Counted from the stretch's first letter, positions 6,594-33,074 are shown. The stretch is 64,000 bases of DNA from Elusimicrobia bacterium GWA2_51_34 (GCA_001799565.1 MGTS01000002.1:6645-70644), one strand, 5' to 3'. The notes: a model not told the origin generated them from the letters alone. Translations and numbers: made by a program.

Positions 6594-6792
6594 CCGCCCA
6601 GGGTCAACGGAATAAAAGTATGCAAGATAATACGCAGTGGCCCGGTTTTGCGCAATATTAAAATCCTTGCCATAATCCGGCTATGACATTGAGGAGTCAA
6701 GGCCCAAGATATTGGAAGCCGGTGCGGATTGTTTTCTTGGTAAACCGTTCACTCTTGAGGCATTAAACGAAAAAATAGCGCATTTACTCTAA
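6594..6792 (+). pseudogene. Truncated, frameshifted response-regulator receiver fragment
   Basis: Translates PRVNGIKVCKIIRSGPVLRNIKILAI / +1 nt at 6675 / SGYDIEESRPKILEAGADCFLGKPFTLEALNEKIAHLL*; N-terminal half absent; not in the ORF track. Confidence 0.8.
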
Positions 6793-6817
6793 AATAGGGC
6801 TTGCTTAAGGATTCCAT

Positions 6818-9182: not shown

Positions 9183-9566
9183 ATGGCGAAGATACTGATC
9201 GTAGACGACGACGCTTTAAACCGCGATATGCTCAAAACACGGCTGGAGGCGGCTGGCTATGGCGTGGCCGAAGCCGGCAACGGGGAAGAGGGCGTTAAAG
9301 CGGCGCAGGCCCTGGCGCCGGATCTTATAATTATGGATGTGATGATGCCAAAGGTAGACGGCAGGCTGGCGTGCCGTATCCTGAAGACAAATCCAAAGAC
9401 AAAAGACATCCCCGTGGTGATGTTGACGGCCCGCAGCCAGCACATGGAGGAACTCAGGGGTTGGGAATCCGGAGCGGACGAGTATCTGGTCAAACCCTGC
9501 GATCATCAGCAGCTGTTGGCGCTTATAGCAAAATTCCTTGACAAAGCGCCTAAGGACGCCTCGTAG
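9183..9566 (+). CDS. Single-domain response regulator
   Basis: VDDD, MDVMMP, LTA, VKP motifs. Confidence 0.92.
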   Translation: MAKILIVDDDALNRDMLKTRLEAAGYGVAEAGNGEEGVKAAQALAPDLIIMDVMMPKVDGRLACRILKTNPKTKDIPVVMLTARSQHMEELRGWESGADEYLVKPCDHQQLLALIAKFLDKAPKDAS

Positions 9567-9575
9567 TAAAATATT

Positions 9576-11087
9576 ATGGACAAAAGTACGGAAATCCCTC
9601 TTGCGCGCAAGATCCCCGCTGAAATACTGCGTCTGGTATCTTATGAAATTGTCCGGCGCCACGGCCTGATTCCGCTTGCACTGAGCGGGGAGAAACTCCG
9701 CATCGCCGCGGTAAACCCTAATAGCTTAATAGCGCTAGACGACATCCGCCTGCGGTCCGGCTATGAACTGGAAATAGTAAAAGTCTCGCAGGCGGAGATG
9801 GATGCTCTTTTATATGAAAATTTTAACGATCCGTCGGAGCATCCCGTCTGCCAGGCATTGACGGTGGAGCCGGCAAAAGACGGGAACGAAGTTCCCCGGC
9901 CGGAAGATTCTTTTGCCGTCCGGTCAGTGGAAAAACTTTTAAATTTCGCGCTTACCATGCGCGCAAGCGACATCCACCTGGAACCGCAGCGCAACGCTCT
10001 TTTTGTGCGTTTCCGCGTGGACGGCGTGCTGAAAACTATTCATGAGTTCCCCAAGCCGGCCCAAGCCGCCATTACTTCCCGCATAAAGGTCATGGCGAAT
10101 ATGGATATTTCAGAAAAGAGGCTGCCCCACGACGGCCAGATAAACATAGAACGCGAGGGGAGGAACATAGATCTGAGAGTATCCACGCTGCCCGCCAAAT
10201 ACGGTGAAAAAGTGGTGATTCGCATACTGGATAAATCGGGAATGGCTATAGGCCTTGACACTTTGGGGCTGGAACCGGATATGCAGAGCACGTTTGAGTC
10301 CCTCATTGAAAGTCCCCATGGGATAATTCTGGTAACCGGCCCCACCGGGAGCGGAAAAACCACCACGCTTTACTCCGTTTTAAGCAAGATCAGATCGCCG
10401 TTCAAAAACATCATAACCCTTGAAGATCCCATAGAATATGAACTTCTTTGCGGCAGCGCCAATGAAATGGGAATCACCCAAGTGCAGGTGCACCCCAAAA
10501 TAGGGCTCACTTTCGCCGCGGGTTTGAGATCAGCGCTTAGACAGGATCCGGATGTTATAATGGTCGGGGAAATAAGGGACAAGGAAACCGCTGAAACGGC
10601 CATGACCGCCGCGATGACAGGCCATCTTGTGTTATCCACGCTTCACACAAACGACGCCCCCAGCGCTCTGGGAAGGCTTCTGGATATGGGCATTGAGTCT
10701 TACCTGATGGCTTCCACCGTGATAGGCATTCTGGCTCAGCGCCTTCTGCGTGTTCTGTGCTCTGACTGTAAACAAAAATATCAGCCGCCGCTTAGGGCCC
10801 TTAAAAACATGTTTCCCGCCCGCCAGAACCTGGAAAAATCCGTTTTCTACAGGGCCAAAGGCTGTCCGCACTGCCAGGGGACCGGCTATCTGGGCAGGCA
10901 CGGCGTTTTTGAGCTTTTGGTTATGTCCGATGAATTGAAACAGCTTATTCACGACGGTCAGAATCTTGAAGGGATACGTAAAATTCTGGCGGCCCAGGGA
11001 TTAAAATCGTTGAGGGAGAGCGGAATGGAGTTGGTTTTTAAGGGGCTGACTACCGTGGAAGAAGTGTCTAGGGTAGTGGTGGATTAG
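9576..11087 (+). CDS. GspE/PilB family secretion/pilus assembly ATPase
   Basis: ASDIHLEP, Walker A GPTGSGKTT, LRQDPDVIMVGEIRD, STLHTND, CxxC...CxxC zinc motif. Confidence 0.93.
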   Translation: MDKSTEIPLARKIPAEILRLVSYEIVRRHGLIPLALSGEKLRIAAVNPNSLIALDDIRLRSGYELEIVKVSQAEMDALLYENFNDPSEHPVCQALTVEPAKDGNEVPRPEDSFAVRSVEKLLNFALTMRASDIHLEPQRNALFVRFRVDGVLKTIHEFPKPAQAAITSRIKVMANMDISEKRLPHDGQINIEREGRNIDLRVSTLPAKYGEKVVIRILDKSGMAIGLDTLGLEPDMQSTFESLIESPHGIILVTGPTGSGKTTTLYSVLSKIRSPFKNIITLEDPIEYELLCGSANEMGITQVQVHPKIGLTFAAGLRSALRQDPDVIMVGEIRDKETAETAMTAAMTGHLVLSTLHTNDAPSALGRLLDMGIESYLMASTVIGILAQRLLRVLCSDCKQKYQPPLRALKNMFPARQNLEKSVFYRAKGCPHCQGTGYLGRHGVFELLVMSDELKQLIHDGQNLEGIRKILAAQGLKSLRESGMELVFKGLTTVEEVSRVVVD

Positions 11088-11182
11088 GGAAGGTAGCGGC
11101 GATGGGCAGAGTGGGCGTAAATAATGAACCCCTTGCCAAAACCCCGCGCCCGATACTTTTCTCCTATATACGAACGGAATTC

Positions 11183-12790
11183 ATGAAAGAACAGATAACA
11201 ATATTGGTGGTGGACGATGATCCTGAAATACAAGACCTGTTGACAAACGAACTTTGTTCCCGCGGCTATAAAGTGGTTACGGCTTATAATGGAGAGGAGG
11301 CCCTTGAAAAATTCAAGAAGGGAAAATTTAGCCTGGTTATCAGCGACATTAAAATGCCACGGCTGGGGGGCCTTGGATTGCTGGCCGCCATTAAAAAAAT
11401 AAATCCCGAAGTAGAGGTTATCATGTCCACCGGGTACGCCACAATTGAAACGGCGGTAAGCGCCATGAAAAAAGGCGCATACGATTTTGTGCAGAAACCG
11501 TTCAATCTTGAGGAAATTTTCGCCATAATAGAGAAGGCCCTGGAAAAAAGCGAGCTAAAGACCCTGCTTGGAATTTACGAGGCGGGAACAAACATCTTTT
11601 CGTCGATCAAGCTGGATGAACTCCTGTCCGGTATGGCCGGACTTGCTACCCGGATTCTTAAGGCCGATGACGCGTCCATTATGCTGCTGGACCAGGAGGG
11701 GAGGCTTGCTGTCGCAGCAACCTCCGGTTTTGACAATGACGAACAGAAAAAAACACGCCTGGCGCTGGGCGAAAGGGTAGCGGGCAAGGTGGCCCGGGAC
11801 AAGGGGCCGGTTATCATTGACGGGCCGCTGGATAAGGACCTGCGATTTTTAAACATAGACAGTCTTCGCGACATCCGTTCCGCAATTGTGTTTCCGCTGG
11901 TGATGGAAGGGCGTCTGCTAGGGGTTTTAAACGCCAATCGCACCGTCCTGGAAACTCCGTTTACCGCCTCCGACCTCCGGTATGCCTCTGTTTTCTGCGC
12001 CCAGATAACCCAGGCCATACATAACGCCACGCTTTACCGTGAACTGGACGACAAGATGCGGGAGACCAGGCAAATGCAGTCCCAGCTTATTCAGTCGGAA
12101 AAACTGGCGGCCATCGGTAAACTGGCGGCCGGAGTGGCGCATGAGATAAATAATCCGCTTGTAAGTATCATGGGGTTCACGGAACTGCTGCTTAAAGACA
12201 AAGATCTCTCTTCGGGCCAGCGCGAAGACTTGCAATCCATTCTGGAGCAGAGCCGGCGCTGCAGCAGGATCGTGCAGAATCTCCTTCAGTTCAGCCGCGG
12301 GAAAAAAGGGACTGACGAAACCGTCAGCCTGAGCCTTCTGCTGGAAGCAAGCCTGCAATTGATGAAGTATGATCTGATCCGGTCAAATATTACGGTTGAA
12401 AAAAACTTCCCCGAAGATCTTCCCGCCGTGCAGGGGGATACAGTGCAGTTGGAGCAGGTATGCCTCAATCTCATAGGTAACGCGCGGCAGGCGATGGAAG
12501 GCAAGAAGGACGGGATCATAAAAATAGACGTTTCCCAAGATGCGGGGCGGATCATTGTGCGGTTTGAAGATAACGGCTGCGGCATCCCGCCGGAAAATCT
12601 GGGCAAAGTATTTGACCCGTTTTTTACCACAAAGCCGGTGGGCCAGGGAACGGGGCTTGGACTGGCCATCTCTTACGGGATCATTCAGCAGCACAAGGGT
12701 ACGATTCGGGTGGAAAGCCAGGCGGAGGTTGGGACGACCTTCATCGTTTCCCTTCCTGTTGCCGCGAAGGCACCGGATAAAAGAAGCTGA
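11183..12790 (+). CDS. REC-GAF-HisKA-HATPase histidine kinase
   Basis: N-terminal receiver (SDIKMP), GAF, GVAHEINNP H-box, PFFTTK..G.GTGLGL. Confidence 0.93.
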   Translation: MKEQITILVVDDDPEIQDLLTNELCSRGYKVVTAYNGEEALEKFKKGKFSLVISDIKMPRLGGLGLLAAIKKINPEVEVIMSTGYATIETAVSAMKKGAYDFVQKPFNLEEIFAIIEKALEKSELKTLLGIYEAGTNIFSSIKLDELLSGMAGLATRILKADDASIMLLDQEGRLAVAATSGFDNDEQKKTRLALGERVAGKVARDKGPVIIDGPLDKDLRFLNIDSLRDIRSAIVFPLVMEGRLLGVLNANRTVLETPFTASDLRYASVFCAQITQAIHNATLYRELDDKMRETRQMQSQLIQSEKLAAIGKLAAGVAHEINNPLVSIMGFTELLLKDKDLSSGQREDLQSILEQSRRCSRIVQNLLQFSRGKKGTDETVSLSLLLEASLQLMKYDLIRSNITVEKNFPEDLPAVQGDTVQLEQVCLNLIGNARQAMEGKKDGIIKIDVSQDAGRIIVRFEDNGCGIPPENLGKVFDPFFTTKPVGQGTGLGLAISYGIIQQHKGTIRVESQAEVGTTFIVSLPVAAKAPDKRS

Positions 12791-12792
12791 TT

Positions 12793-14772
12793 ATGAAAAC
12801 AATATTGAAGATGATCCCCGCGCTGGCACTCTTAAGCTTCCCGGAAACCGCCGTCAGGGCGGCAGACGGCGGCACCTTCCAGTTATTTGAGGAGGAGGCT
12901 GTCATTATAACGGCCGCCAAGCGGGCTCAGACGGTCACGAAAGCGGCTGCCAGCGCCTCCGTAATCACCGCCGAGAACATTAAACTCTACGGTTACCGCA
13001 CTCTCGGCGAAGCCCTTCAAAGCGTGCCGGGGTTTTACGTTACGGACGACCGTAATTACACTTACCTGTGGGTACGCGGCTTCGGCCGGCCAGGCGATTA
13101 CAATTCCAGGGTCCTCCTGTTGATAAACGGCCACAGGATGAATGACAATATTTACGGCGAGCCCTTTGTCGGGCATGAGTTTTCGTTGGATATGGAATCG
13201 ATTTCCCGAATAGAAGTGATAAAAGGACCGGGAGCCTCGCTTTATGGCGATAACGCCTTATTTGCCGTCATCAATGTAATAACCAGAACGGCGGCGCAGG
13301 AAACCGGAATAGGTGTGAACGCGGAAGCCGGGAGTTACGGCACACATAAAGAATTCGCCGACGTCTCGCACAAATTCAGTAACGGGCTTAATATTTACGC
13401 TTCCGGGTCCACACGGAAAATGCAGGGGCAGAGCCTGCATTTTTCTGAATTCTCCTCCGTCAACGGCGGAGACACCGGCAGAACTGCCGACGCTGAAAAG
13501 AACCACACTTTCTACATTGATATGTCAATGAACGGCTGGAGATTGCATGGAAATACGAACGTGCGGACCAAGGCCCTTCCCACCGCCTCATACGGCACCA
13601 CCTTCAATGATTCCCGTACTGAAACCACGGATTCCCGCAGCTTCATTGAACTGCGCAAAGACATAAGCCTTCGGGAAAACCTCAATCTTATCGCGCGGGT
13701 TCATTATGACTGGTATTATTACAGAGGTCGTTACGTGTCGGACAACGCAACGCCGCCTCCGGCACAGACAGATAGTCACGATAGCTCAAAAAGCTCCTGG
13801 TATGGCGAAGAGGGCCGGCTTCAGTACGATTTTGGAGGGGACAGCATACTTACTTTAGGCCAGGAATATGAAAAAAACACCGTGGGATTGCAGCAAGCCT
13901 ACACTGTTGACCCTTACTCGGAAGATCTTGACGCGAGTTACACGCCTTACCGCTGGGCTGTCTTCGCCCAGCAGGAGTTAAAACCGCTGGATTCCCTGCG
14001 TCTGACTCTTGGCGGCCGCTACGACCGGTATCAGGCGTTTGATTACACTATCAACCCGCGTTTTGCCGTTGTCTATGATCTTTTTGAAAAAACCACCCTG
14101 AAATTTATGGCGGGGTCGGCTTTTAAAGCCCCCACCGCGTTTGAAATGCTGTACGCATTTTCCGGTCAAAACAAAGCCAATGCCTACCTGCGGCCGGAAA
14201 AGATAACCACCTATGAAGCCTATTGCGAGCGGCAATTGCCGGGGCAATGGGGACATGTGGGCGTTGGATATTTCCAGAACCACATCAAAGACCTTATAAG
14301 CCAGATCGTGGATCCGGACGATGGCCTGGTGCAATTCGTCAATAAAGAACGTGTTAAAACGGAAGGTTTGGAATTGAACGCCAAACTGCGCGCCGGCTCC
14401 CGTATCTCCGGGCATGCGGGCTACACTATGCAAAACACCCGGGAGGTGGGAGGAGGTCGCTTATCCAACTCGCCTAAGCACACCGGTACCGTAGGTATAA
14501 CCGGAAAGCTCCCGGATATGGAAACCTCAGCCGGTCTGGAGCTTTTTGTGGTAGGGCCGCGTACGACATTCCAGGAAACCCGTCTTCGCTCAGCCGCGCT
14601 GCTGTCGCTTAATCTTTCAGCCAAACCCTGGAAGGCGGGCCCGCGCTGTTATCTTGGCGTATATAACCTCACGAACGCGGACTACCAGGCATCAGGGTCT
14701 GCGGATCATGTACAGGCGGCTTTAGCGCAGAACGGCAGGAACTACACTATCGGGCTGCAACACCGGTTTTAA
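12793..14772 (+). CDS. TonB-dependent receptor 1
   Basis: Signal peptide, plug motifs (RGF, LLINGH, RIEVIKGPGASLYG), YNLTN near the C-terminus, terminal Phe. Confidence 0.92.
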   Translation: MKTILKMIPALALLSFPETAVRAADGGTFQLFEEEAVIITAAKRAQTVTKAAASASVITAENIKLYGYRTLGEALQSVPGFYVTDDRNYTYLWVRGFGRPGDYNSRVLLLINGHRMNDNIYGEPFVGHEFSLDMESISRIEVIKGPGASLYGDNALFAVINVITRTAAQETGIGVNAEAGSYGTHKEFADVSHKFSNGLNIYASGSTRKMQGQSLHFSEFSSVNGGDTGRTADAEKNHTFYIDMSMNGWRLHGNTNVRTKALPTASYGTTFNDSRTETTDSRSFIELRKDISLRENLNLIARVHYDWYYYRGRYVSDNATPPPAQTDSHDSSKSSWYGEEGRLQYDFGGDSILTLGQEYEKNTVGLQQAYTVDPYSEDLDASYTPYRWAVFAQQELKPLDSLRLTLGGRYDRYQAFDYTINPRFAVVYDLFEKTTLKFMAGSAFKAPTAFEMLYAFSGQNKANAYLRPEKITTYEAYCERQLPGQWGHVGVGYFQNHIKDLISQIVDPDDGLVQFVNKERVKTEGLELNAKLRAGSRISGHAGYTMQNTREVGGGRLSNSPKHTGTVGITGKLPDMETSAGLELFVVGPRTTFQETRLRSAALLSLNLSAKPWKAGPRCYLGVYNLTNADYQASGSADHVQAALAQNGRNYTIGLQHRF

Positions 14773-14777
14773 GCGCC

Positions 14778-15710
14778 ATGAAAAAGAATACTGATAATTT
14801 TGCCGCAGGGGAGACGATACCGTGGAAGCGGAGGCGTTTAGCATCCGCTCTTGTCTTTGCGGCAACGCTTCTTGTATATGCCGTCATAGGCCGCGGGTCC
14901 GCCCAGGAGATCACGGCGGTGCTAAGTTCCGGTTCCAACGCATACGCGGAGTCTCTTGCGGGGTTTGAAAAGGAATGGGGGCAGCCGGTGCCTGCGGCAA
15001 ATATGGCAAGTGAAAACGTGACACTCTCCCACAATAGCAGCTTAGTCATAGCTTTCGGCGCTAAAGCGGCTATGCGGTCGTATCCGGAAAGCCTGACTCT
15101 GGTCTACTGGTCGCCGGGCCTGGGCATTAATCAGATAGGCCGGGCCGGGCCGGCCATTAAGATCTGCCTTGGAGCGCGGCCCGATATTCTGATTTCGCGA
15201 TTAAAGGAGATACAGCCGAAACTTAAAAACCTCAGGATATTTTTTATGGCTAATTACTATACGCGCTATATTGAAGATATGCGCCAGACATCCCGCTCTT
15301 TGGGAATTATAATCCAGGCGGACAAGTTGAACCGGACAAGCGAGCTTCCCGCCCGGCTCCGGGCTATGGAGACAAAACCGGACGCAGTGCTTATACTTAA
15401 TGACCCTCTGCTCATCAATGCCCAGACCTTTGCGATACTTAAGAATTATTCATGGGCCAACGGCGTTCCCCTTTACGCGCCTACCGCCGGGCTTGTGGAG
15501 CAGGGCGCCACGGCGTCCGTAGGGCCCGCTTTCGCGGAGTTAGGACGCGCGGCTGCCCAGACAGTGCGGAAGATCTTAGCGGGGAACTCCACCGGAGAAG
15601 AAATATATCCCGAAATAAACGAAATAGCGGTAAATCTTACGGCGGCGGAAAAAACAGGCGTCATTCTAAGTGAAGGATTTATTAAGAAGGTGCAGAAGGT
15701 GTTCCCATGA
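14778..15710 (+). CDS. Periplasmic ABC_sub_bind-type substrate-binding protein 1
   Basis: N-terminal hydrophobic segment; PDAVLILNDPLL, LVEQGA, ELGRAAA, VNLTAAEKTG; ends KVFP. Confidence 0.8.
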   Translation: MKKNTDNFAAGETIPWKRRRLASALVFAATLLVYAVIGRGSAQEITAVLSSGSNAYAESLAGFEKEWGQPVPAANMASENVTLSHNSSLVIAFGAKAAMRSYPESLTLVYWSPGLGINQIGRAGPAIKICLGARPDILISRLKEIQPKLKNLRIFFMANYYTRYIEDMRQTSRSLGIIIQADKLNRTSELPARLRAMETKPDAVLILNDPLLINAQTFAILKNYSWANGVPLYAPTAGLVEQGATASVGPAFAELGRAAAQTVRKILAGNSTGEEIYPEINEIAVNLTAAEKTGVILSEGFIKKVQKVFP

Positions 15711-15741
15711 CGATCCGGACCAAAACTGATAGGAGAAACGT

Positions 15742-17616
15742 ATGAAAAATATATCGCGATCGGCTCTGCTGATTTTCCTGCTTATAGCCCAGGCGCCCGC
15801 GGCGCGCGCTGACGAAGGCGACGCCTTCAGTTTTTTTGACGAGGAGGCGCAAGTTGTAACCGCCTCGCGCCGCTCCCAGAAAATAACCGAATCGCCTTCG
15901 GCCATTTCAGTAATAACGGCTGAGGATATAAGGCTTATGGGCGCGCGCAGTGTGGCGGAAGCGCTTAATCTGCTCCCCGGAGTAGATCTGCGCTTTACCA
16001 ACCAGAACGCTTTCGGCGGCGGCATCAGAGGGGCTGAACAGATATACGCCAACAAAATAGTCCTCATGATAGACGGCCGGTCCTGGACAGTAGACTTCTA
16101 CACGGCGCCGGCGCTGGACATGCTGCCGGTTACGCTGGAAGATATCAGCAGAATAGAAGTGCTGCGCGGCGCCGGTTCCTCTTTATACGGTTCCGGGGCC
16201 ATATATGGTGTTATAAATATAATAACAAAGCAGGCTAAAGATGCTCAGGGCGCATATGTAAACACCGTCGCCGGAACACAAAACTATTACCAGGGCTCGG
16301 CCCGTTACGGCGGAGCGGCCGGCGCCAATACTCAATACCGGATCAGTGCGGACGCTTTGACGATTGGTCGTTATGCGGGCGGCGCCACCGCTTTAAGGAC
16401 CGCTCCGGGCGTAAACGCCAGAGTGGACCACAAGCTGAAAAACGGGGCGCTGTTGGGTTTTGACGGAAGTTACCGGCGTTCCCAGACAGAGGCTTTCTTT
16501 TCATCAACTGATCTCGCGGTTGCGGGCGTGAAGTATACCGCTGGGGGATTTATGGTAAACGGCGACTTTCAGTATAAAACCGGTCAGACCAGCGAGATGT
16601 TCCACAATGTGCTCTTCACCACAAACCGCGCCGCGCTGGACGTTCAGCAGTCATTTGAACCGGCTGAAAACAATAAACTGCTGATTGGAGCTGATGTAAT
16701 CCAGTTAAACGTATCCGCGTCCCAATTGGGCGGAAACCGCAAAAATACAACTCTGGCCGGTTTCGTAGAGGATAGCCATCGTTTTGAAAATATCATTATA
16801 AATGGAGGAATGCGCATTGACAGATATCCGCAAATGCCGGACGTGATATCGCACCGGACCGGCGCTACATACTCGTTTAATGACGACCACTCGCTCAGAT
16901 TCACCTGGGGCAGGGCATTCCGCAATCCGGACTTGACTGAAACCTACGTAAACAGCGAAATAGACATTGGGATAGGTGTTCAGATACCAATAAACGGCAA
17001 TACCGGCCTTAAGGCCGAAAGTGCGCAAACTTACGAACTGGGATATCAGGGAAGGCTGAACTCCGATATTAATATGTCGGCCAATATGTTTTACACCAAG
17101 TTTAAGAATCCCATAATACTGCACGCCGTCTCCTATCTGCCGGCGCCATTCGACAGTGTGCCCACGGCAGTACGCGCCGATAATTTAGGCCGAGGCGCGC
17201 AATATGGCGCCGAAGTTGAGTTCAGGGCCAAATTAAGCGAGTATCTGACAGGTCTTGCGAACTACACGTATATGGGAAGTGAAATCTTAGACGGTGTGAC
17301 GAAAAGAAACCTTGGAGACACCACGCCCAGGCATATAGCCAACGCCCAGCTTCGCGGCCGGTTCCGGAATGGATTTGGCGCCAATGCCTGGGTGCGTTAC
17401 CGCGGGGTTTCAAACTGGGATAACTCCACGGCGGAACCCAGGTCAAATCCGTCAGCCACCCTCAATGTGAGAATCGGCTATGAGTTTGACTTCTACGGCG
17501 GCAAAGCGGAAGCCGGACTCGCGGCTTATAATGTTACGAATCATCCGGTCAATGAGATGCCGGGTTATGATCATAGCATGCGCAGGGTGACAGCAGACCT
17601 GACTTATAGGTTTTAA
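15742..17616 (+). CDS. TonB-dependent receptor 2
   Basis: Signal peptide, ESPSAISVIT, RIEVLRGAGSSLYG..A..GVINIIT plug motif, terminal Phe. Confidence 0.92.
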   Translation: MKNISRSALLIFLLIAQAPAARADEGDAFSFFDEEAQVVTASRRSQKITESPSAISVITAEDIRLMGARSVAEALNLLPGVDLRFTNQNAFGGGIRGAEQIYANKIVLMIDGRSWTVDFYTAPALDMLPVTLEDISRIEVLRGAGSSLYGSGAIYGVINIITKQAKDAQGAYVNTVAGTQNYYQGSARYGGAAGANTQYRISADALTIGRYAGGATALRTAPGVNARVDHKLKNGALLGFDGSYRRSQTEAFFSSTDLAVAGVKYTAGGFMVNGDFQYKTGQTSEMFHNVLFTTNRAALDVQQSFEPAENNKLLIGADVIQLNVSASQLGGNRKNTTLAGFVEDSHRFENIIINGGMRIDRYPQMPDVISHRTGATYSFNDDHSLRFTWGRAFRNPDLTETYVNSEIDIGIGVQIPINGNTGLKAESAQTYELGYQGRLNSDINMSANMFYTKFKNPIILHAVSYLPAPFDSVPTAVRADNLGRGAQYGAEVEFRAKLSEYLTGLANYTYMGSEILDGVTKRNLGDTTPRHIANAQLRGRFRNGFGANAWVRYRGVSNWDNSTAEPRSNPSATLNVRIGYEFDFYGGKAEAGLAAYNVTNHPVNEMPGYDHSMRRVTADLTYRF

Positions 17617-17626
17617 TAAGACCATT

Positions 17627-18493
17627 ATGAAAAAGCACCTATTTATAGTTTTAGCGGAGCTCTTATGCCTGTCAGCCATCTGTCCGGCGAATGCGCACGA
17701 GATAGCCGCGGTTCTAAGCTCGGATTCACAATACTATGTTGAGGCTTTCAACGGTTTCCAGAACGCCATAGGTTATCCAGTTAAATCTTTTACCATGCAG
17801 AAAGCCCCGGTCCAAATAAGCGCCGCGACAAAAGTAGTTGTAGCTTTCGGAGGAAGAGCCTCGCTACTGGATTATGAAACCGCAGCATGCATTGTTTCCT
17901 GCATGGCTCCAAGCGTGGAAATTAATGACAATCGCTACTATTATATTTCAATGTCGCCGCGGCCCGGCCTGCTTTTGTCAAAACTTAAGCTTATCCAGCC
18001 TGCGCTTAAACGCCTTGCCGTATTCTGGACATCTGAATCCATGAAGGATTATCTAAGGCAAATACAGCAGGAGGCGGCTTTGGCGGACATAACGCTGACC
18101 GCGGTGCGGCTGAAAAACTTAAACGAGCTTCCGGATCATCTCCGCGCCATGCAGGGGAAAACCGACGCTATATTTTTCCCGCCGGATCCTCTTCTTGTAA
18201 ACGCGCAGACTTTTGAAACAGTCAGGGATTTTTCCGCGCAAAATCATATCCCGTTTTACGCCCCGACTGAAGCTCTTGTGGAAAAAGGCGCTGTGGCTTC
18301 GGTTTCAAGCAGTTTTGAAAACATGGGCCGCAGCGCGGCTTTCATAGTTGACCGGCTGTTCAACGGGAAAACGGTGAAGCAGATCACTTATTCGGATGAG
18401 GTCCGCCTGGCCATAAATCTGAAGGCCGCCGGCCTCGCGGGGCTTAAAATCACTCCTGAAATGCTGACAAACGTGGATAAGGTTTTTCCATGA
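17627..18493 (+). CDS. Periplasmic ABC_sub_bind-type substrate-binding protein 2
   Basis: Paralog of 14778..15710 (EIAAVLSS, DPLLVNAQTF, KVFP). Confidence 0.8.
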   Translation: MKKHLFIVLAELLCLSAICPANAHEIAAVLSSDSQYYVEAFNGFQNAIGYPVKSFTMQKAPVQISAATKVVVAFGGRASLLDYETAACIVSCMAPSVEINDNRYYYISMSPRPGLLLSKLKLIQPALKRLAVFWTSESMKDYLRQIQQEAALADITLTAVRLKNLNELPDHLRAMQGKTDAIFFPPDPLLVNAQTFETVRDFSAQNHIPFYAPTEALVEKGAVASVSSSFENMGRSAAFIVDRLFNGKTVKQITYSDEVRLAINLKAAGLAGLKITPEMLTNVDKVFP

Positions 18494-20388
18494 AACTTTT
18501 AACAAAGCTTTTGCTTTTTTTTGTTCCTTTAACGCTGTTTTTGGTCGGCGCGGCGGTGATCATCTCTGGAAAGGGCATACACAGTATTTTGGTGGATGAG
18601 GTTAACAATCGCGGTTTGGCTCAGATATCCGGAAACACAAAGGCTTTTTCCATGGCTTTTGAATCCGGAACCGAAGCCGCGCTTCTTCCGCTTTTACAGT
18701 CTCTGAAAGAACAGCTCCATGGCGTGCAGGCGGCGGCGCTGGATCAGACGGGCAGAGTTCTGGCGCATACAAACGTGATGGAGAAAGGCAAAACCTACTC
18801 CGACGCACTCACAACCGGGATGTTGCGTTCAGAGTCCCCTGTTTTCCGTGAAACCGCAATACAAGGGGAAGTGGTACTTGAAATATCAGCTCCTGTATGG
18901 AGTGAGGAGAAAGAGGATTTTTTAATCACGGCCGGAGATAAATCCCAAAAACAGCGCTTCGGCACCATAATGCTTGGTATGCCGTTGACTCGCACGATTC
19001 AGCTTGAAAGCAGGCTCTTTGTACGTCAGTCCGTGTTCCTTATTCTGGCGGCCGGCGGACTTTCACTGGGGCTTATTTTTTTTATGATGTGGATGATATT
19101 ACTACCGGCGCGGCGCCTTGCGGCTGGTATATCAAAAGTCAGCGAAGGACAATACGGGCTGACCGTTCCGGTGGGTTCAAATGATGAGCTTGGGCAACTG
19201 ACCGCCGCTTTCAATTTAATGGCCGGGAATCTTGGGAAAACAACCGTTTCCCGCGACAAACTTGCCGAAGAAATTATTGAGCGCAAGCGCATAGAAGAGG
19301 CCCTGCGTGAAACGGAGGAAAAATATAGGCTGCAATTTGAAGGAGCATTGGACGCAATCGTAGTGGCGGACGCTGAAACCGGCCTGATGGTAAATGTAAA
19401 TAACGCAACGGCAAAATTGGTCGGCAGGGAAAAATCAGAACTCATCGGCCAGCACCAGCGGATTCTGTATCCTCCTCAGGGAATCGGAAGGGGAGAATCC
19501 GCTGATACTTTTGAATATCATCTTACGGAGAAAAAAGACCAGGCTTTGGAAGCGCAGGTTATTACCAAAACAGGGGAACTAAAAGAAGTTTCCATAACGG
19601 TAAGCCAGCTTGAGATCAGAGGGGGGAAATTTTTACAGGGCATCTTTCGCGACGTAACCATGCAAAGGAAGCTGGAAGCCAGCCTGATGCAGTCTGATAA
19701 GCTTTCGGCGATAGGCCAGCTTGCGGCCGGCGTGGCCCATGAAATCAATAATCCTCTGGGGATTATTCTTGGATTTGCCCAAAGCGTGATAAAAAGACTC
19801 AAAGAAGGCGATTCTCTGGCGCTTCCGCTTAAAACAATAGAGCGGGAAGCTATTCGCTGCAAAGATCTGGTGCAGAATTTGCTTGTTTTTTCAAGAACTC
19901 CCAAGGGCGCTCAGTTGGAGGAGCTGGATACAAATGCCGTCATAGAAGGAGCCTTGTCTTTGATTTCTGCTCAAACCAAAACGCATAATGTTGAACTTGT
20001 CAAAGAGCTGTATGCCGCCTTCCTCCGGATCTGCGCCAATAAAACCCAGCTCCAGCAGGTTATTATCAATCTGGCCAATAACGCCCTTGACGCGATGCCC
20101 AAAGGCGGGACGCTTACCATCAGCACAGTTGTTTCCGCTAAACAGCCGGGACATGTGGAAATACGTGTCAGGGATACGGGCACCGGCATTGCGAAAGATT
20201 TGCAAAAGAAGATCTTTGAACCTTTCTTTACAACCAAAGAAGTGGGGAAAGGCACGGGCCTTGGACTATCGCTGGTGTACGAGATAGTGCAAAAGCACGG
20301 CGGGACCATTGAGTTGGTAAGTGAAGAGGGGAAGGGGGCCGTGTTTACCGTTCTTTTACCTCTTAAACCCGCGGCGGGGAAGTGCTGA
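18490..20388 (+). CDS. Membrane sensor histidine kinase (TM-periplasmic-TM-HAMP-PAS-HisKA-HATPase)
   Basis: Two TMs, HAMP NDELGQLTAAFNLM, GVAHEINNP; ATGA overlap with the SBP gene. Confidence 0.93.
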   Translation: MKLLTKLLLFFVPLTLFLVGAAVIISGKGIHSILVDEVNNRGLAQISGNTKAFSMAFESGTEAALLPLLQSLKEQLHGVQAAALDQTGRVLAHTNVMEKGKTYSDALTTGMLRSESPVFRETAIQGEVVLEISAPVWSEEKEDFLITAGDKSQKQRFGTIMLGMPLTRTIQLESRLFVRQSVFLILAAGGLSLGLIFFMMWMILLPARRLAAGISKVSEGQYGLTVPVGSNDELGQLTAAFNLMAGNLGKTTVSRDKLAEEIIERKRIEEALRETEEKYRLQFEGALDAIVVADAETGLMVNVNNATAKLVGREKSELIGQHQRILYPPQGIGRGESADTFEYHLTEKKDQALEAQVITKTGELKEVSITVSQLEIRGGKFLQGIFRDVTMQRKLEASLMQSDKLSAIGQLAAGVAHEINNPLGIILGFAQSVIKRLKEGDSLALPLKTIEREAIRCKDLVQNLLVFSRTPKGAQLEELDTNAVIEGALSLISAQTKTHNVELVKELYAAFLRICANKTQLQQVIINLANNALDAMPKGGTLTISTVVSAKQPGHVEIRVRDTGTGIAKDLQKKIFEPFFTTKEVGKGTGLGLSLVYEIVQKHGGTIELVSEEGKGAVFTVLLPLKPAAGKC

Positions 20389-20771
20389 TGACAGGCAAGG
20401 AAAAACATATTCTTATTGTGGATGATGAACCGGGATTTCACGAACTGTTCAGGTTTATCCTGGAGCCTTTGGGGTTCACGGTCAGTTCCGCCTACAACGG
20501 CCTGGAAGGACTGGAGCGGCTAAAGGAACATGAATATGACATAATATTCCTCGATGTCCATATGCCGAAGATGACAGGACCGGAGCTTTTGAAGTTAATC
20601 AAGGGAATAAAACCTTTACAACTGGTGGTGATAATGAGCAGCGGTTCCGATCCCCGCCAGGCCTTTGAAACAACTGTTAAAGGATTAGGGGCGGCCGCCT
20701 GCATGTTTAAGCCTTTTGAATTGCATCAGATCATGAAGAATCTTGAACGCATCCCGTGCGCATCAACTTAA
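20388..20771 (+). CDS. Single-domain response regulator
   Basis: VDDE, LDVHMP, KPF; TGATG overlap with the kinase. Confidence 0.9.
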   Translation: MTGKEKHILIVDDEPGFHELFRFILEPLGFTVSSAYNGLEGLERLKEHEYDIIFLDVHMPKMTGPELLKLIKGIKPLQLVVIMSSGSDPRQAFETTVKGLGAAACMFKPFELHQIMKNLERIPCAST

Positions 20772-20817
20772 AATTTCGGCTGTGATCAGAACGAAAAAAG
20801 CGCGGGGCAAAAAACTT

Positions 20818-21171
20818 ATGGACAAAGCGATCCTGGTAGTTGACGACGAGCAGGGGTACCTGGATTTACTCCACCTGGAACTTTCTGATCAGGGCTACAC
20901 CGTTATGACGGCCGTCGGCGGCTCCGAGGCTTTGGAAATCTTAAAAAAAGAGGAGGTGGACCTTATAATTACGGATATGAAAATGCCGAAAATGGACGGG
21001 CTTGACCTTGTAATCGCCAGCAGGCAGTTGCGCCCTGGTATTCCCATTATTCTGATGACGGGATACGCGGTGGAGGAGCGTGTCCAGGAAGCGCTCGCCA
21101 GAAAAGCCGGCGTCTGCCTGCGCAAGCCTTTCAATATCAGCGAACTAATCAGCCTTGTTGAAAAATATTAG
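20818..21171 (+). CDS. Single-domain response regulator
   Basis: VDDE, TDMKMP, MTGY, KPF. Confidence 0.9.
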   Translation: MDKAILVVDDEQGYLDLLHLELSDQGYTVMTAVGGSEALEILKKEEVDLIITDMKMPKMDGLDLVIASRQLRPGIPIILMTGYAVEERVQEALARKAGVCLRKPFNISELISLVEKY

Positions 21172-21180
21172 CTTAAAAAT

Positions 21181-21873
21181 ATGCCTAAAAAAATACTTTT
21201 GGTCGAAGATGATCGTAAAATGCTGGATGTTATGCGGCGCTACCTTGAGAACCGCGGATTTTCCGTTATTTTTACCGATAATGGTTCCGAGGCTCTCATG
21301 CTTGCGCGCGATTCCAAGCCGGACCTGATCGTGGCGGATGTCGGACTGCCGGGGCTTGACGGCTTCGGCTTATGCAAAGCCATAAAATGCTCGGCCGAAA
21401 CCGCGGCTGTGCCGGTGATAATAATTTCGGGAGGAAAAACGGAAGAGGCCGATATTATATCCGGCTACGACAAGGGCGCGGATGACTACCTTACCAAACC
21501 TTTCCCGTTTTCCGTGCTGGCGGCCAAGATAACCGCCGTGCTGCGGCGCTATGGCGCCGGTTCCGGCCCCGCCGCCCGCAAGATACGGGAGCAGGGGCTT
21601 GAGCTTGATCCCGCCGCCCGCACTATGAAATTAGACGGCAAATTGGTGGCCCTGACCCGCAAAGAGTTCGATCTTCTTACCCTCATGCTGGAAAAAAAGG
21701 GGCGGATACTGGGTATCCCTTATATGCTTGAAACGGTCTGGGGTTATGACATGTCTACGTATGATAACCCCCATACGGTTGAAGCTCATATTTGTTCCCT
21801 GAGAAAAAAACTTGGAGGGAAGCTTGCCTCGCGGTTGGTAAATGTTACCGGCCACGGCTATAAATTTGAATAA
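21181..21873 (+). CDS. OmpR/PhoB family response regulator
   Basis: Receiver plus winged helix (LTRKEFDLL, VWG, TVEAHICSLRKKL, GHGYKF). Confidence 0.93.
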   Translation: MPKKILLVEDDRKMLDVMRRYLENRGFSVIFTDNGSEALMLARDSKPDLIVADVGLPGLDGFGLCKAIKCSAETAAVPVIIISGGKTEEADIISGYDKGADDYLTKPFPFSVLAAKITAVLRRYGAGSGPAARKIREQGLELDPAARTMKLDGKLVALTRKEFDLLTLMLEKKGRILGIPYMLETVWGYDMSTYDNPHTVEAHICSLRKKLGGKLASRLVNVTGHGYKFE

Positions 21874-21876
21874 AAT

Positions 21877-22638
21877 ATGAAACCACAAACACAGAAAGAA
21901 ATCAGCTGTCTGCCGGAAAGGAAAAAAATGGCGGCCCTTGGACGGCTATCCTGTAATCTGGCCCACGACTTTAACAATATCCTGGGCGCTATAGAAGGTT
22001 ATGCTACGCTGGCTATGAACGGCGTCAGGGAAGATGATCCCCTAAGGCTTGATTTGCGGGAAATACGCTCGTCTGTGGCCAAGGCCGCCGTTCTTACAAA
22101 ACAGCTTTTTGTTTTCGGTGGTATGCAAATGCTGCATAAGACGCCTTGTGGAGTTAACGAGATAATAGCGAATACGCTTAAACGGACGGAACTGGTCCCA
22201 CTCGGCGATTTTAAAATTGAAGCGCGGCTTGAGCCCGGATTGCCCGCCGTAATGGCCGATGCCGCGCAGTTGGAGCAGGCGCTTGTAAATCTGCTGGTTA
22301 ACGCGCGTGAGGCCATGTCGGGCGGCGGAACGGCTGTTATAAGCGTATCCGCCCTGCGGCTTGAGGGGGACGCGGTAAACTCGCCCGATCCGAAAGCGGC
22401 AGGGGCTATGTTTATGAAAATTGTCGTACAGGACAGCGGTGGGGGAATAAGCGAGGAAATTCTTGAGCGTCTCTTTGAGCCCCTGTTCTCAACCAGGAAA
22501 AAAGGCAACGGCTCCGGCCTGGGGCTTTCCATGGTATACGGCGTAGTCAAAAAGCATAACGGCTGGGTTGAGGTAAAAAGTGAGCCGGGCCGGGGCAGCG
22601 AATTTTCGCTGTTCCTGCCGGTGTCAACTGCCGGGTAG
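21877..22638 (+). CDS. Sensor-less histidine kinase core (HisKA + HATPase only)
   Basis: AHDFNNIL within about 30 aa of the start; GSGLGL. Confidence 0.88.
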   Translation: MKPQTQKEISCLPERKKMAALGRLSCNLAHDFNNILGAIEGYATLAMNGVREDDPLRLDLREIRSSVAKAAVLTKQLFVFGGMQMLHKTPCGVNEIIANTLKRTELVPLGDFKIEARLEPGLPAVMADAAQLEQALVNLLVNAREAMSGGGTAVISVSALRLEGDAVNSPDPKAAGAMFMKIVVQDSGGGISEEILERLFEPLFSTRKKGNGSGLGLSMVYGVVKKHNGWVEVKSEPGRGSEFSLFLPVSTAG

Positions 22639-22889: not shown

Positions 22890-24053
22890 ATGAAGGACAG
22901 AGCATTGAATCCCAAGAAAGTCCTGATCGTGGACGATGATGAAAGCATTCTCCGCGTCTGCGGCAGAACCCTGGCCTCGGAAGGTTTTGAGGTCGTCACT
23001 TCACAAAACGGCGAAGATGCCGTAAAAAAGCTGAAGGAGAGCGAATTCGGCGTTGTTTTCACGGACCTTACTATGCCGGAAATGGGAGGGAAAGAGCTTT
23101 TAAAGCATGTCAGGCAAAACCACAGTTTTACCTGTGTGAATATCTTTACCGGGGCAAGTACGGTAGAAGGGGCCGTGGAATGCATGCGCCTTGGGGCCTG
23201 CGACTATATAAGCAAGCCCTTCGGCATGAATGAATTAACCGCCATGGCCTTTAGGTGCGCGGGACATTACTCCCACCATCTGGAAACGGCGAGACTGAAT
23301 CATGACATTACAGCCTACGCGGAGCTGGATAAATTGAAATCCGAGTTCGTTTCCAATGTTTCACATGAACTACGCACCCCTCTTTTTTCAATCGGCGGGG
23401 CGCTGGACCTCCTGCTCCAGACTATGCCGGAGCTAACGGATGCGGCTTCAAAAAAATTGGTGGAGGTTATGCACAATAATCTTGCCCGCTTAAATTCTAC
23501 TGTCGCTAACGTTCTTAATTTTTCGCGGATAGAAAAAGGCGCTTTCATTCCTGTCTTTAAAAACATGGATCTGGCCGCTTTAGCGCGGAAAGCCATGAAA
23601 GACCTTCACCCTCTATTTGTGCAGCGCGGCATATCCGCGGAGCCAGTGTCCAGTTCCGCGGCGGGCGCCATGATAGAAGCTGATCCGGAACATATGGAGC
23701 AGGTTCTGATAAATCTGCTAGGCAACGCGATAAAATTTACTCCCCGTGGAGGCAGGGTGGGAGTGGAGCTGTCCGGCGGCGCGGACGCGATCCTTATGTG
23801 CGTCTGGGACACAGGGTGCGGCATCGCCCCCCAATATCACAAGAAAGTTTTTGACAGATTTTACCAGGTGGACGGTTCTATTATCAGGGAGACGGGCGGC
23901 TCTGGTATCGGGCTCTCCATTGTGAAGTCCATCATGGAGATGCACGGCGGGAGCGTATGGGTGGAAAGTTCTCCGGAAACAGGGAGCAGGATCAATATCT
24001 CACTGCCCCGGAGCAGGCAAAAAAAAGAGGGGGGGAACCATTATGGAATCTGA
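22890..24053 (+). CDS. REC-HisKA-HATPase hybrid kinase
   Basis: TDLTMP receiver; FVSNVSHELRTP; GGSGIGL. Confidence 0.92.
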   Translation: MKDRALNPKKVLIVDDDESILRVCGRTLASEGFEVVTSQNGEDAVKKLKESEFGVVFTDLTMPEMGGKELLKHVRQNHSFTCVNIFTGASTVEGAVECMRLGACDYISKPFGMNELTAMAFRCAGHYSHHLETARLNHDITAYAELDKLKSEFVSNVSHELRTPLFSIGGALDLLLQTMPELTDAASKKLVEVMHNNLARLNSTVANVLNFSRIEKGAFIPVFKNMDLAALARKAMKDLHPLFVQRGISAEPVSSSAAGAMIEADPEHMEQVLINLLGNAIKFTPRGGRVGVELSGGADAILMCVWDTGCGIAPQYHKKVFDRFYQVDGSIIRETGGSGIGLSIVKSIMEMHGGSVWVESSPETGSRINISLPRSRQKKEGGNHYGI

Positions 24054-24444
24054 TAACAGCAATAAAACCATTCTTGTAGTGGACGATGAGCCCGACATAG
24101 TGTTTGTGCTTACTATGGCCCTGAAAAAACGCGGGTACCATACCGAGGAGGCCTTTAACGGGCTGGAAGCGCTGGCGAAGATCCGGGAACATATACCGGA
24201 CGCGGTGATTATGGATATCATGATGCCTAAAATGGACGGCCGCTCGGTAAACCTGAAATTGAAGCAGGATCCCAAAACCGCCGGCATCCCTGTAATCATC
24301 ATAACCGGAAAAGGAGATTTCAAGGAACTGCTGGACCTTCATGAGGGCGTTAATGTGGCGGCGTATCTTGAGAAACCGTTCCCGATCTCGGTTCTCATGG
24401 AGAAGCTTAACAATATACTCAATGAGGTGGATAGTAGGAAGTAG
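24043..24444 (+). CDS. Single-domain response regulator
   Basis: VDDE, MDIMMP, ITG, EKP. Confidence 0.9.
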   Translation: MESDNSNKTILVVDDEPDIVFVLTMALKKRGYHTEEAFNGLEALAKIREHIPDAVIMDIMMPKMDGRSVNLKLKQDPKTAGIPVIIITGKGDFKELLDLHEGVNVAAYLEKPFPISVLMEKLNNILNEVDSRK

Positions 24445-24499
24445 GAAGTGGGTGGTAGGTAGTGATGCGGAGAGAAAAAAAGTTTTTAGCGGGAGATAT

Positions 24500-27400
24500 A
24501 TGAGCTTGACAGGTTTTAAACTCGATATAAAACCGGAAATCTCTCCCGGCCCTCTCTCTTTGACCCGGTTTTTCCGCCTTTCCCCACATACTACATACTA
24601 CCTACTACCTGCTTTTATGTGTTGCCTTGCAGTATTTAGCGCTTCCCTTTATGCCGGAGGCAGCCGCAATCTATTGCCCGCCGATTTTGCCCTTGGGACC
24701 TCGGAAAACCTGGAAACCACGGACAGTAACATGACCCTTGTGAAAAGATGGACTTTCGGAGGGCAGGGCCCGATGGCCGCCCGCCGGCAGCCGGGCTTCG
24801 CCTTTGATGAAATCCGTAACCTGGCTTTGGTTTTTGGAGGAATGGACGCCAACGGCGCGGCCCTGGGGGATACCTGGCTGTTGGGCTCCGGCTGGACGCA
24901 GCAAACCCCCGCCGGGCCGCCGGCCCCCCGTTATGGACATGGGCTGGTATGGATGGGAGATAAATTCCTGATGTTCGGCGGCTCTTCCGGAAATGATACC
25001 TGGACATACGACATAGTTTCGGATACCTGGACAAGTATTTCCGCGTCTCCCGCGCCCCCCTGGCGGCTTATGCCCGCTATGGCGTATGACCCGGATCTCG
25101 GCAAGGTTGTGATGTTAGGAGGAGTTGATGACAGCCGCACGTGGATATACAATATCGCCGGCTCCAGCTGGACGGCGCTGAATTTATCCCCGGCGCCCTC
25201 CCCCCGCGCGGGGGCTTCCATGGCCTATGACAGGGTCAGTAAAAAAATGGTCCTTTTCGGAGGGAAGAGGGTTTCGGACGGCGCGCTTCTTGACGATACC
25301 TGGACCTTTGACCCTGCCTCCCTTAGCTGGACGGACAAAGCTCCTTCTTCAAGACCTGAAGCCCGCTGGCAGGGGGCAATGGTTTATGATCCCGTAAACG
25401 GAAGCGTACTTCACTATGGAGGTTTTACTTCCGGCTACACAAGTGATATCTGGTTTTACAATTTCGCAGCGAACAAATGGTCAAACCACTATGAATATAA
25501 CCCCGATAAACCGGGCGGACACTATGGCCACGGACTTGTTTACGACGTTCCGAACAGACGGGCGGTCATTTTCGGAGGGATGCAGGACGTGGCTGTCAAA
25601 AGCGTCTGGATCTACAGTTTTCTTTCCACGGGCTCGTGGACATCCGCCCCGCTGGATATATGGGCAGGGTACTCTTCCACCACTACCAGCACCTGGGACA
25701 GTATTTCCGCCGAGTTCAGCGATAAGCCGGCGGATACCGGCGTATTTTTTCAGCTGGCGTCTTCTCCGGATGGGACCGCCTATGATCTTTTCAGGGGTCC
25801 AGACGGATCTATCGGCACATTTTACAGCGCCGGCGCGCCCGTGACCGTATGGTCCGGCCATAATAACAGGCGTTTCATGAAAGTGAAAGCGGACTTCTTC
25901 TCCAATGACCCGCCCGGCAGGCCCAAGGTTTCACTGTTTAATATCGCCTATAACCGGGCTCCCTACGCCCCCGCGCTTGTTTCCCCGGAAAACGGCGGCA
26001 GGACGAACGACTCTACCCCGCTGTTTAAATGGAGCCTGGTTTCCGACGCCGACTCGGATGCGGTACTTTTGTATCAGATCCAGGTGGACAGCGCCCCGGA
26101 ATTTTCGTCTCCGGATATTTCCGGGGAGAATATCGCCGCCGGCGCCGCGGACGTTTCTTTTGCCACCGGAACAATACTCCCGGAGGGAGTCTGGTACTGG
26201 CGGGCTAGAGCCAGGGATCCGGCCGGGCTCTATGGAGACTGGTCCGGCAGCTTCAGCGTAACCGTGGACACTACCACGCCTCCCGGCGCCGTTACGGCTA
26301 TTAGCGCGGCCAGAGGCGCGGCCATAAATTCCGTGCGCCTTACCTGGAACTTTCCGGGAGACGACAAAGGCAGGGTGGATAACGGGATCTACCGGGTGCG
26401 TTTCTCTCCCCTGGGAGAAATACTGACGGATGGAGCCTGGTTGGACGCGGCAGCGACGGAAAGCTCCGGCCTGTTTAGCGCCGCGCCCGGTGAAACCGTG
26501 CAAACCACGGTCACGGGGTTTGCGGACGCGACAACTTACTATTTCGCCGTTAAAACCCAGGATGAACTGGGAAATCTTTCGCCTGTTTCCGCCGTCAGCC
26601 CGTTCACAATGACGGATTCTTCGCCCACCATCTCTCTTATCTCGCCCAACGCGGGGGGGCTTATAATCGGGACCACTGTTATCGCCTGGACGCAGTCCGA
26701 CGCCAATTCCGGCGATTCTATAACCAAAAGGATACTTATCTCTACTGATAGCGGCGCCAGTTACTCCATTCAGATCGCAAGCGGGATAACACCTGGCGCC
26801 ACTTTTTATTTATGGCATTCCCCATGCGTGCTTAATGGTTCCGCCTATAGGATCAAAGTTGAGGCTGTGGATCAAAGAGGGCTCTATGCCTCCGACTCCT
26901 CCGACTTGGATTTTGAAACTGACAATACCAACGAGCCGCCCTCGGTCTATTTCATTTCCGCTCCAGCGGCCGGAGAGGAAGTGTACTCAGGCAGCCTGGC
27001 TATTTCCTGGGGGGTGAGCGATACTAATTCCATGGATACGCATACTTATAATATCCTGCTTTCCGTAAACTCCGGCGGCACTTTTACCACGTTTGTCAGC
27101 GGCTATGCAGGGACCAGCTATACTTTTGACACAAAAATTTTCGCCAATCTGTCCACCTACCAGCTTAAGATCCTGGCAGCGGATTCAGGAACCCCTCAAT
27201 TAACCGCGGCGGTATTGTCGCCTGTTTTCACTATCCTCAACTCCCTTCCGCCAAAGGCGTTCAACCTTATAAAGCCGCTCGATGAAAGTTTTCCCGCGGT
27301 ATTCGATCTTAAATTCTCCTGGACACCGGCCATAGACCCGGAAGGGAGCGCCGTAACATACACGCTGCAGTATTCCACTACCGCCGGTCCGGAGGGGGGG

Positions 27401-33045: not shown

Positions 33046-33074
33046 CCGGAGGACACCAGTGTCCTTATATTTAA

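Follow-up and report, generated by a model that had tools for sequence, protein, structure and literature searches.

Two TonB-dependent receptor and binding-protein pairs encoded with a Cache histidine kinase in an Elusimicrobia bacterium: most likely a two-input sensor for outside molecules

We analyzed a stretch of 64,000 nucleotides (nt) from Elusimicrobia bacterium GWA2_51_34 (GCA_001799565.1, MGTS01000002.1:6645-70644), hereafter termed the window, in which eight closely packed genes on the + strand (12793-21873) encode two tandem pairs of a TonB-dependent receptor (TBDR) and a substrate-binding protein (SBP), a histidine kinase, two stand-alone receivers and a DNA-binding response regulator. 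Adjacent genes of this module either overlap or are spaced by 2-31 nt. Open reading frames (ORFs) and Pfam matches define the genes as follows (lengths in amino acids, aa).

12793-14772, +, TBDR1: 659 aa; signal peptide, acidic-aromatic motif, TonB box EEAVIITA, plug, barrel of the 22-strand type and C-terminal Phe; Pfam Plug 76 bits, TonB_dep_Rec_b-barrel 151 bits.
14778-15710, +, SBP1: 310 aa; PF04392-like, exported, without a transporter partner; PF04392 63.6 bits.
15742-17616, +, TBDR2: 624 aa; Plug and barrel, TonB box DEEAQVVTAS.
17627-18493, +, SBP2: 288 aa; PF04392-like, full two-lobe fold; PF04392 65.5 bits.
18490-20388, +, histidine kinase: 632 aa; first transmembrane helix (TM1), sCache/PDC domain at about residues 28-178, second transmembrane helix (TM2), HAMP, PAS, HisKA and HATPase_c.
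20382-20771, +, stand-alone receiver 1: 129 aa; Response_reg 83.7 bits.
20743-21171, +, stand-alone receiver 2: 142 aa counted from a TTG; Response_reg 94.2 bits.
21181-21873, +, OmpR-type DNA-binding response regulator: 230 aa; Response_reg and Trans_reg_C.

An initial annotation, made from the sequence alone, had described two pairs of a TBDR and an ABC_sub_bind protein followed, with an overlapping stop and start, by a HAMP-PAS kinase, two receivers and an OmpR regulator; the ORFs, the Pfam matches and the ATGA common to the SBP2 stop and the kinase start (a 4-nt overlap) bear out this description. For receiver 2, an ATG located 75 nt inside the ORF is a likely alternative start.

Both receptors exceed the Pfam cut-offs for Plug and TonB_dep_Rec_b-barrel, and TBDR2 additionally matches a related barrel family. 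The two proteins are 38% identical over the plug, and their barrels have diverged. Plug and barrel families are the only ones matched, and Pfam detected no STN/FecA-type signaling domain in either receptor. Residues 33-42 of TBDR2 (DEEAQVVTAS) align to DGETMVVTAS of mature CirA (chain residues 5-14), with EEAVIITA of TBDR1 occupying the same place. The N-terminus common to the two receptors had been singled out as unusual; its (V/I)xTA part proved to be an ordinary TonB box, since the TBDR2 stretch aligns to the start of mature CirA, a stretch known as the TonB box. The sharing itself is real and involves a family-specific acidic-aromatic motif placed directly before the TonB box, exemplified by DAFSFFDEE, EFWTFMSEE and DEFFSLER. 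This motif is present in 48 of the 50 full-length N-termini of module-linked receptors, compared with 4% of shuffles, a figure that is descriptive because the pattern was drawn up after the alignment had been viewed. Our guess is that the motif might serve as a docking site for the binding protein. TBDR2 was also scored against the TOL_0244 receptor family and falls outside it, reaching 175 bits where the cut-off is 645; the accessible part of the paper on that receptor contains expression data only (PMC6304351).

SBP1 and SBP2 share 37% identity over 287 aa. Together with the diverged receptor barrels, this degree of identity indicates that the pairs are old duplicates with different receptor surfaces and not a recent copy. 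The PF04392 scores of both proteins lie well above the cut-off of 25.9 bits and cover model positions 121-292 only, corresponding to the C-terminal lobe, the N-terminal lobe having diverged beyond the Pfam model. An AlphaFold2 model of SBP2 built from 28 sequences (mean predicted local distance difference test score, pLDDT, 91.6) displays a type I binding protein with both lobes complete. At the top of its structural matches stand the solved PF04392 proteins 3lkv, 3lft and 6hnj/6hni (TM-score 0.59-0.69), with LuxP and XylFII, which signal through kinases, lower in the list. The ligands given for the solved PF04392 proteins in the accessible text of the source are L-Trp, L-Tyr and L-Phe (PMC10443332). 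The best NCBIfam match, the TrpX equivalog, was rejected as an assignment, since its cut-off is 390 bits and the SBPs reach 44 and 69. KVFP forms the C-terminus of both binding proteins (15699-15710 and 18482-18493); all 10 aligned relatives have the last proline, with DKVFP as the consensus C-terminus, and the KVFP codons extend at their 3′ end into the ATGA shared with the kinase start.

The periplasmic sensor of the kinase scores 25.9 bits against sCache_3_2, just below the cut-off of 28.4, and the relatives in two other loci (L005 and L012) score above it. A model of kinase residues 1-200, computed from 40 sequences (pLDDT 90.5), shows TM1 continuing into a long helix, then a five-strand PDC/Cache domain and TM2; Foldseek matched it to the sensor domains of DcuS, CitA and WalK. 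Residues E62, H93, V96, P135 and G158 and the stretch AHTNV are invariant and lie on and after strand 2; AHTNV is compatible with SBP docking or with a ligand pocket belonging to the sensor itself. The sensor family is small: of 1.84 billion representatives, 872 clusters match at E<=0.001, falling to 202 at 1e-10 and to 97 at 1e-30. The domain is N-terminal among the full-length matches listed, and its host proteins vary greatly in length.

No transporter accompanies the binding proteins. The absence of an ABC (ATP-binding cassette) permease, an ABC ATPase and tonB/exbBD from the window, reported by the initial annotation, was confirmed with Pfam for the 52 window ORFs scanned, in which none of these or of ExbB/D was matched; TonB_C and ExbB occur on other contigs only. 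The sole ABC-related item in the window is a cut SBP_bac_5 gene at 9-854. Across the whole genome (43 contigs, 97.84% complete), no match was obtained to BPD_transp_2, presumably the permease family that serves PF04392 proteins, and the four receptor and SBP genes account for the only two Plug domains and the only two PF04392 proteins. Near relatives of the module in other genomes, Pfam likewise detected no ABC permease among 37 neighboring proteins and 21 further ones. Genes for FecR, an anti-sigma factor or a sigma factor of the ECF (extracytoplasmic function) type are missing among the window ORFs scanned with Pfam. Two ExbB-ExbD(-ExbD)-TonB clusters are encoded off the contig of the window, so the receptors can be energized.

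Contig C33 (L063): TPR protein, ExbB, ExbD, ExbD and TonB (366 aa).
Contig C18 (L064): ExbB, ExbD and a TonB_2/TonB_C protein (213 aa).

The second of these clusters may be Tol-like. The genome holds two TonB systems and two receptors.

We then surveyed the conservation of the arrangement in one genome per species using a 10-sequence SBP alignment, which yielded 62 loci whose ORFs were labeled by phmmer with the window proteins as queries. Forty-nine loci (L001-L049) are close, with 29-66% identity to SBP2, and 13 are distant (22-28%). A gene-neighborhood survey had been put forward by the initial annotation as a check, and its outcome was favorable: 42 of the 49 close loci have a same-strand TBDR directly upstream (including a split gene in L031 and a weak fragment in L011), 41 of 49 have, downstream of the SBP, a kinase that shows homology to the window sensor over its first 200 residues, and no ABC permease was found among the neighbors scanned. 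The seven close loci without an upstream TBDR comprise four with less than 500 nt of upstream sequence, L009 with no match in 1.1 kb, L008 with the TBDR positioned after the kinase, and L046, which holds a binding-protein fragment only. Among the eight close loci without a following kinase, L002 and L018 reach contig ends and six have unrelated neighbors. Translational coupling of the SBP and kinase genes, seen as a 4-nt (A/G)TGA overlap, is kept in 38 of the 41 kinase-linked loci. The close loci belong to Elusimicrobiota, Nitrospirota, Gemmatimonadota, Verrucomicrobiota, Krumholzibacteriota and Latescibacterota; since the arrangement is conserved in at least 40 loci and six phyla, it is far beyond chance. 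Sampling of 201 genomes and 76 genera within Elusimicrobiota detected the binding protein in 24 genomes and 22 genera, and it was not found in the small-genome families sampled.

The output genes vary from locus to locus. Stand-alone receivers are present in all five Elusimicrobiota loci scanned; other loci carry a receiver-PAS-GAF-HD protein, a sigma-54 activator or hybrid kinases with Hpt. The 13 distant loci likewise tie the binding protein to signaling, with a convergent TBDR in six. L051 has the arrangement TBDR-SBP-HAMP kinase, and in Rugamonas and a relative two binding proteins precede an sCache_4 hybrid kinase-GGDEF-EAL protein. A search for relatives of the distant proteobacterial group returned 1139 matches, with no Cycloclasticus name among the 120 listed. 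In two distant loci, L057 (2310-5200) and L061 (7767-13072), the gene directly upstream of the binding protein encodes a Ser/Thr kinase that carries PEGA at its C-terminus; L061 continues with a convergent TBDR, and the same input parts appear to be wired to a Hanks-type kinase.

The tandem organization recurs. L002 and L001 are two contig ends of one sister metagenome-assembled genome (MAG) and repeat the gene order of the window, including the upstream ATPase and receiver-GAF-kinase genes. L025 has two TBDR-SBP pairs and then one kinase, like the window, and L030 has two TBDRs with one binding protein. Seven kinase-less TBDR-SBP pairs form one clade (Shimodaira-Hasegawa-like approximate likelihood-ratio test support, SH-aLRT, 100). 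For the kinase-less loci L018, L020, L039 and L040, a kinase-linked module is found in the same MAG (L024, L017, L033 and L047, respectively). These patterns fit a role of the kinase-less pairs as extra input channels to a kinase whose gene would lie elsewhere. The sister MAG has a kinase with XylR_N, V4R and PAS domains (L001, 3926-5728) between the module kinase and the receivers, and no such gene occupies that place in the window. Activators of aromatic catabolism use XylR_N and V4R as sensor domains.

A system with the same layout has been described in Cycloclasticus sp. P1, where the genes for PahS, PahP and PahK follow one another in that sequence (Wang et al., iScience 2023, PMC10570129). 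According to the accessible text of that paper, PahS (687 aa) is a TBDR, PahP (318 aa) a binding protein of the periplasm and PahK (771 aa) a kinase with HAMP, HisKA, HATPase_c and HPT domains; binding of polycyclic aromatic hydrocarbons (PAHs) is reported for PahS and PahP, and transposon mutants lose PAH use (PMC10570129). The same text reports binding of PahS to PahP and of PahP to PahK by surface plasmon resonance (SPR), co-immunoprecipitation (CoIP), two-hybrid assays and Förster resonance energy transfer (FRET), and its authors propose a path from ligand to receptor, binding protein, kinase and regulator (PMC10570129), which is exactly the relay that the initial annotation had suggested for the window.

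The tandem pairs and the kinase are most likely a two-input sensor for outside molecules. We consider it fairly probable that they work as an import-to-sense device, in which uptake by a TBDR leads to a transporter-less SBP and from there to the Cache kinase. Each TBDR would take one kind of external molecule across the outer membrane in a TonB-driven step and hand it to its own periplasmic PF04392-type SBP, which lacks an ABC importer. The loaded SBP would dock on the single-Cache domain of the kinase and thereby alter autophosphorylation via HAMP and PAS, and the two receptor/SBP pairs would feed one kinase. Phosphotransfer would then reach the two single-domain receivers and the OmpR-type regulator, within a larger multi-kinase array. 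Of this picture, the genes, their folds, the missing transporter, the conserved triad and its translational coupling are observed, whereas ligand transfer, SBP-kinase contact, the meeting of both channels on this kinase and the output are inferred. As for the ligand, an aromatic compound is a weak guess by analogy, made because solved PF04392 proteins bind Trp, Tyr or Phe, because PahP is reported to bind PAHs and because of the XylR_N/V4R kinase in L001. A stronger formulation is possible, which we consider less likely than not: the whole TonB-dependent machinery of this bacterium might be devoted to sensing only, with two molecules, private SBPs and one kinase acting as a two-input gate, the acidic-aromatic motif as the docking site that keeps the SBP beneath its receptor, and a physical relay across the periplasm to the inner membrane, distinct from FecA/FecR, that serves many outputs in at least six phyla.

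The receptor-to-SBP-to-kinase relay is supported in part and gains from the lack of a transporter, from the TBDR and kinase genes that flank the SBP, from the coupling of SBP and kinase genes, from the recurring tandem and extra pairs and from the published precedent; what it loses is priority, the idea being already in print. Several points weigh against it. Six close loci contain a TBDR-SBP pair without an adjacent kinase, and the target of SBP1 may be another of the at least six kinases of the array. The AHTNV stretch of the sensor might be a pocket in its own right and the SBP dispensable for sensing, because DcuS/CitA-type PDC domains bind small ligands alone and because AHTNV is invariant. 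No SBP-kinase or other fused form was found among longer proteins at E<=1e-8, which is weak evidence. The Pah precedent is a single study, and the binding models, by its authors' own account in the accessible text, were docked onto predicted structures (PMC10570129).

One alternative accepts the import step and places ligand binding in the Cache domain of the kinase itself, with the SBP buffering, chaperoning or retaining the ligand or tuning sensitivity; we regard it as unlikely. Direct kinase sensing of enterobactin has reportedly been proposed for PfeS and PirS, and the sensor of the window kinase has the PDC fold of the ligand-binding DcuS and CitA, with E62, H93, V96, P135, G158 and AHTNV invariant on or after strand 2. 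The translational coupling of the SBP to the kinase in 38 of 41 loci and its co-occurrence with this particular sensor domain across phyla nevertheless exceed what would be expected of a mere buffer, and PahP is reported, in the accessible text, to bind PahK at nanomolar affinity (PMC10570129).

Still less probable is a ligand-free relay, in which binding at the cell surface would alter the receptor N-terminus, the SBP would be released or captured and the kinase switched, following FecA/FecR-like logic with different parts. The acidic-aromatic motif before the TonB box, with its 48 of 50 occurrences against 4% of shuffles, would suit such a relay, as would the presence of PahP on PahS without ligand reported in the accessible text of the Pah study (PMC10570129). 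That pattern, however, was defined post hoc, neither receptor has an STN/FecA-type domain, no FecR or ECF sigma gene lies nearby, and the SBP retains a complete two-lobe ligand-binding fold. As a reading of the trans-envelope signaling named in the initial annotation, import followed by periplasmic sensing is likelier than a ligand-free form, given the lack of a FecA-type signaling domain.

Ordinary nutrient uptake, with an unrecognized inner-membrane transporter completing the route and the kinase merely a co-transcribed regulator, is very improbable: PF04392 proteins elsewhere are ABC substrate-binding proteins, the solved ones bind Trp, Tyr or Phe and TrpX, a Trp transporter protein, heads the NCBIfam matches, but the genome is without a BPD_transp_2 permease, no permease adjoins any relative examined, the TrpX score (69 vs 390 bits) is far under the cut-off, the Pfam model covers the C-terminal lobe only, and the conserved partner is a kinase sensor domain.

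The module is embedded in a same-strand signaling array (3061-24053) in which at least six kinases are joined by many receivers and an MshEN-type secretion ATPase. The array contains a PAS-GAF hybrid kinase, a multi-receiver kinase, two receivers, an MshEN/T2SSE ATPase, a receiver-GAF kinase, the module and two further kinases. The genes next to the module, assigned by Pfam, are as follows.

11102-12790, +, receiver-GAF-histidine kinase; stops 2 nt before TBDR1.
21877-22638, +, HisKA/HATPase cytoplasmic kinase; prolongs the same-strand array.
22890-24053, +, receiver-kinase, cytoplasmic; prolongs the same-strand array.

Judged by spacing, the receiver-GAF-histidine kinase and TBDR1 belong to one transcription unit, and the same receiver-GAF-kinase gene also precedes the module in L002. 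A scan of 2700-22600 for operon signals gave 24 promoter-like elements (16.6 in shuffles) and 24 terminator-like elements (27.4 in shuffles); with counts so near those of shuffles, the scan is uninformative on operon limits. No RNA data were present among the 9 sequencing runs that match the DNA, and the DNA runs are groundwater metagenomes, from which the sequence may stem. An ATPase homologous to the MshEN/T2SSE protein of the array is encoded just upstream of the module in L002 and L023 as well, making three places including the window, a hint that a pilus or secretion ATPase is under control in one sub-lineage.

The kinase array is directly followed by a gene (24341-28318) for a protein of 1325 aa that combines Kelch repeats with Ig-like and fibronectin type III domains and carries FlgD_ig at its C-terminus; two ORFs without clear families come next. 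Further signaling genes downstream (31387-35261) encode a receiver-GGDEF protein, its GGDEF match being partial, as well as two receiver proteins and a DUF4143/AAA_14 ATPase. At 52001-54000, G+C falls to 0.43 from about 0.52 elsewhere, and an FkbM-type methyltransferase is accompanied by ORFs without a Pfam match; 60743-61567 encodes a phage tail collar domain protein. The region 851-2742 encodes a B12-binding radical SAM enzyme, with a small ORF lacking a Pfam match ahead of it. The enzyme was considered as a maker of the ligand; a similar one (31% identity; 7805-9706) lies directly upstream of the SBP in L008 only, and with one occurrence in 62 loci it was rejected as a general partner.

TBDRs are usually seen as nutrient importers or FecA-type transducers. 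Feeding a transporter-less SBP that leads to a two-component kinase is a third use, on which our literature search found one experimental paper, and the present locus displays the same logic in a distant, uncultured groundwater phylum, as the sole use of TBDRs in the genome. Points of interest are the two-channel layout, the devotion of the genome's only TBDRs to it and the conserved motif before the TonB box. Taken with this locus, the 40-odd related ones define a portable input module composed of a receptor, a PF04392-like protein and a specific Cache sensor. Two questions become testable with it: how didermic cells sense molecules too large or too scarce for porins, and how two such signals are integrated.

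Several known systems resemble parts of the module. LuxP-LuxQ is a binding-protein-dependent sensor kinase pair; there, as in TorT-TorS and XylFII-LytS, a transporter-independent type I periplasmic SBP is the ligand-binding subunit of a membrane kinase. The SBPs of these three systems are of other families, their kinases have other sensors and no outer-membrane receptor gene is involved. TorT-TorS and XylFII-LytS are cited as binding-protein-dependent kinases in the accessible text of one paper (PMC9602780). TrpX-type PF04392 SBPs (3lft, 3lkv, 6hni) share the fold, with the C-terminal lobe recognizable by sequence, whereas those of the window are without a cognate permease or ATPase and have TBDR and kinase genes, not an ABC operon, as their linkage partners. 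Unlike FecA-FecR-FecI, the module has no STN domain and no anti-sigma or ECF sigma gene, and uses a soluble SBP and a two-component kinase relay. In YfiB-YfiR-YfiN, a periplasmic protein governs a HAMP-containing inner-membrane enzyme, and an outer-membrane partner is present. The YfiR-type parallel drawn by the initial annotation is an analogy only, since SBP1 and SBP2 gave no match to the YfiR family and PF04392 was the sole family reported by Pfam; moreover, YfiR is of another family, YfiB is a lipoprotein and not a TBDR, and the output is a diguanylate cyclase.

The nearest counterpart is the Pah system. Our literature search found no description of a PF04392/COG2984/ABC_sub_bind protein together with a TBDR and a kinase, and, on the Pah system, only the 2023 paper (PMC10570129) and its 2021 forerunner. 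With a system of the same layout published in 2023, the module is real and interesting and not unprecedented. Both systems, as far as the accessible description of the Pah proteins extends, combine a co-directional TBDR, a transporter-less SBP of about 300 aa and a HAMP histidine kinase, and the match is one of layout and logic. They differ in that the receptor/SBP pairs are in tandem here; that the kinase here clearly carries a periplasmic Cache domain, along with PAS, whereas PahK is described in that text without a periplasmic sensor and carries an HPT domain; that the regulators lie in the same operon here, with pahR placed elsewhere according to the same description; and that the present system is found in Elusimicrobiota and the Pah system in Pseudomonadota. 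The kind of system is known and barely studied; new here are the tandem inputs, the sCache kinase and the occurrence in Elusimicrobiota.

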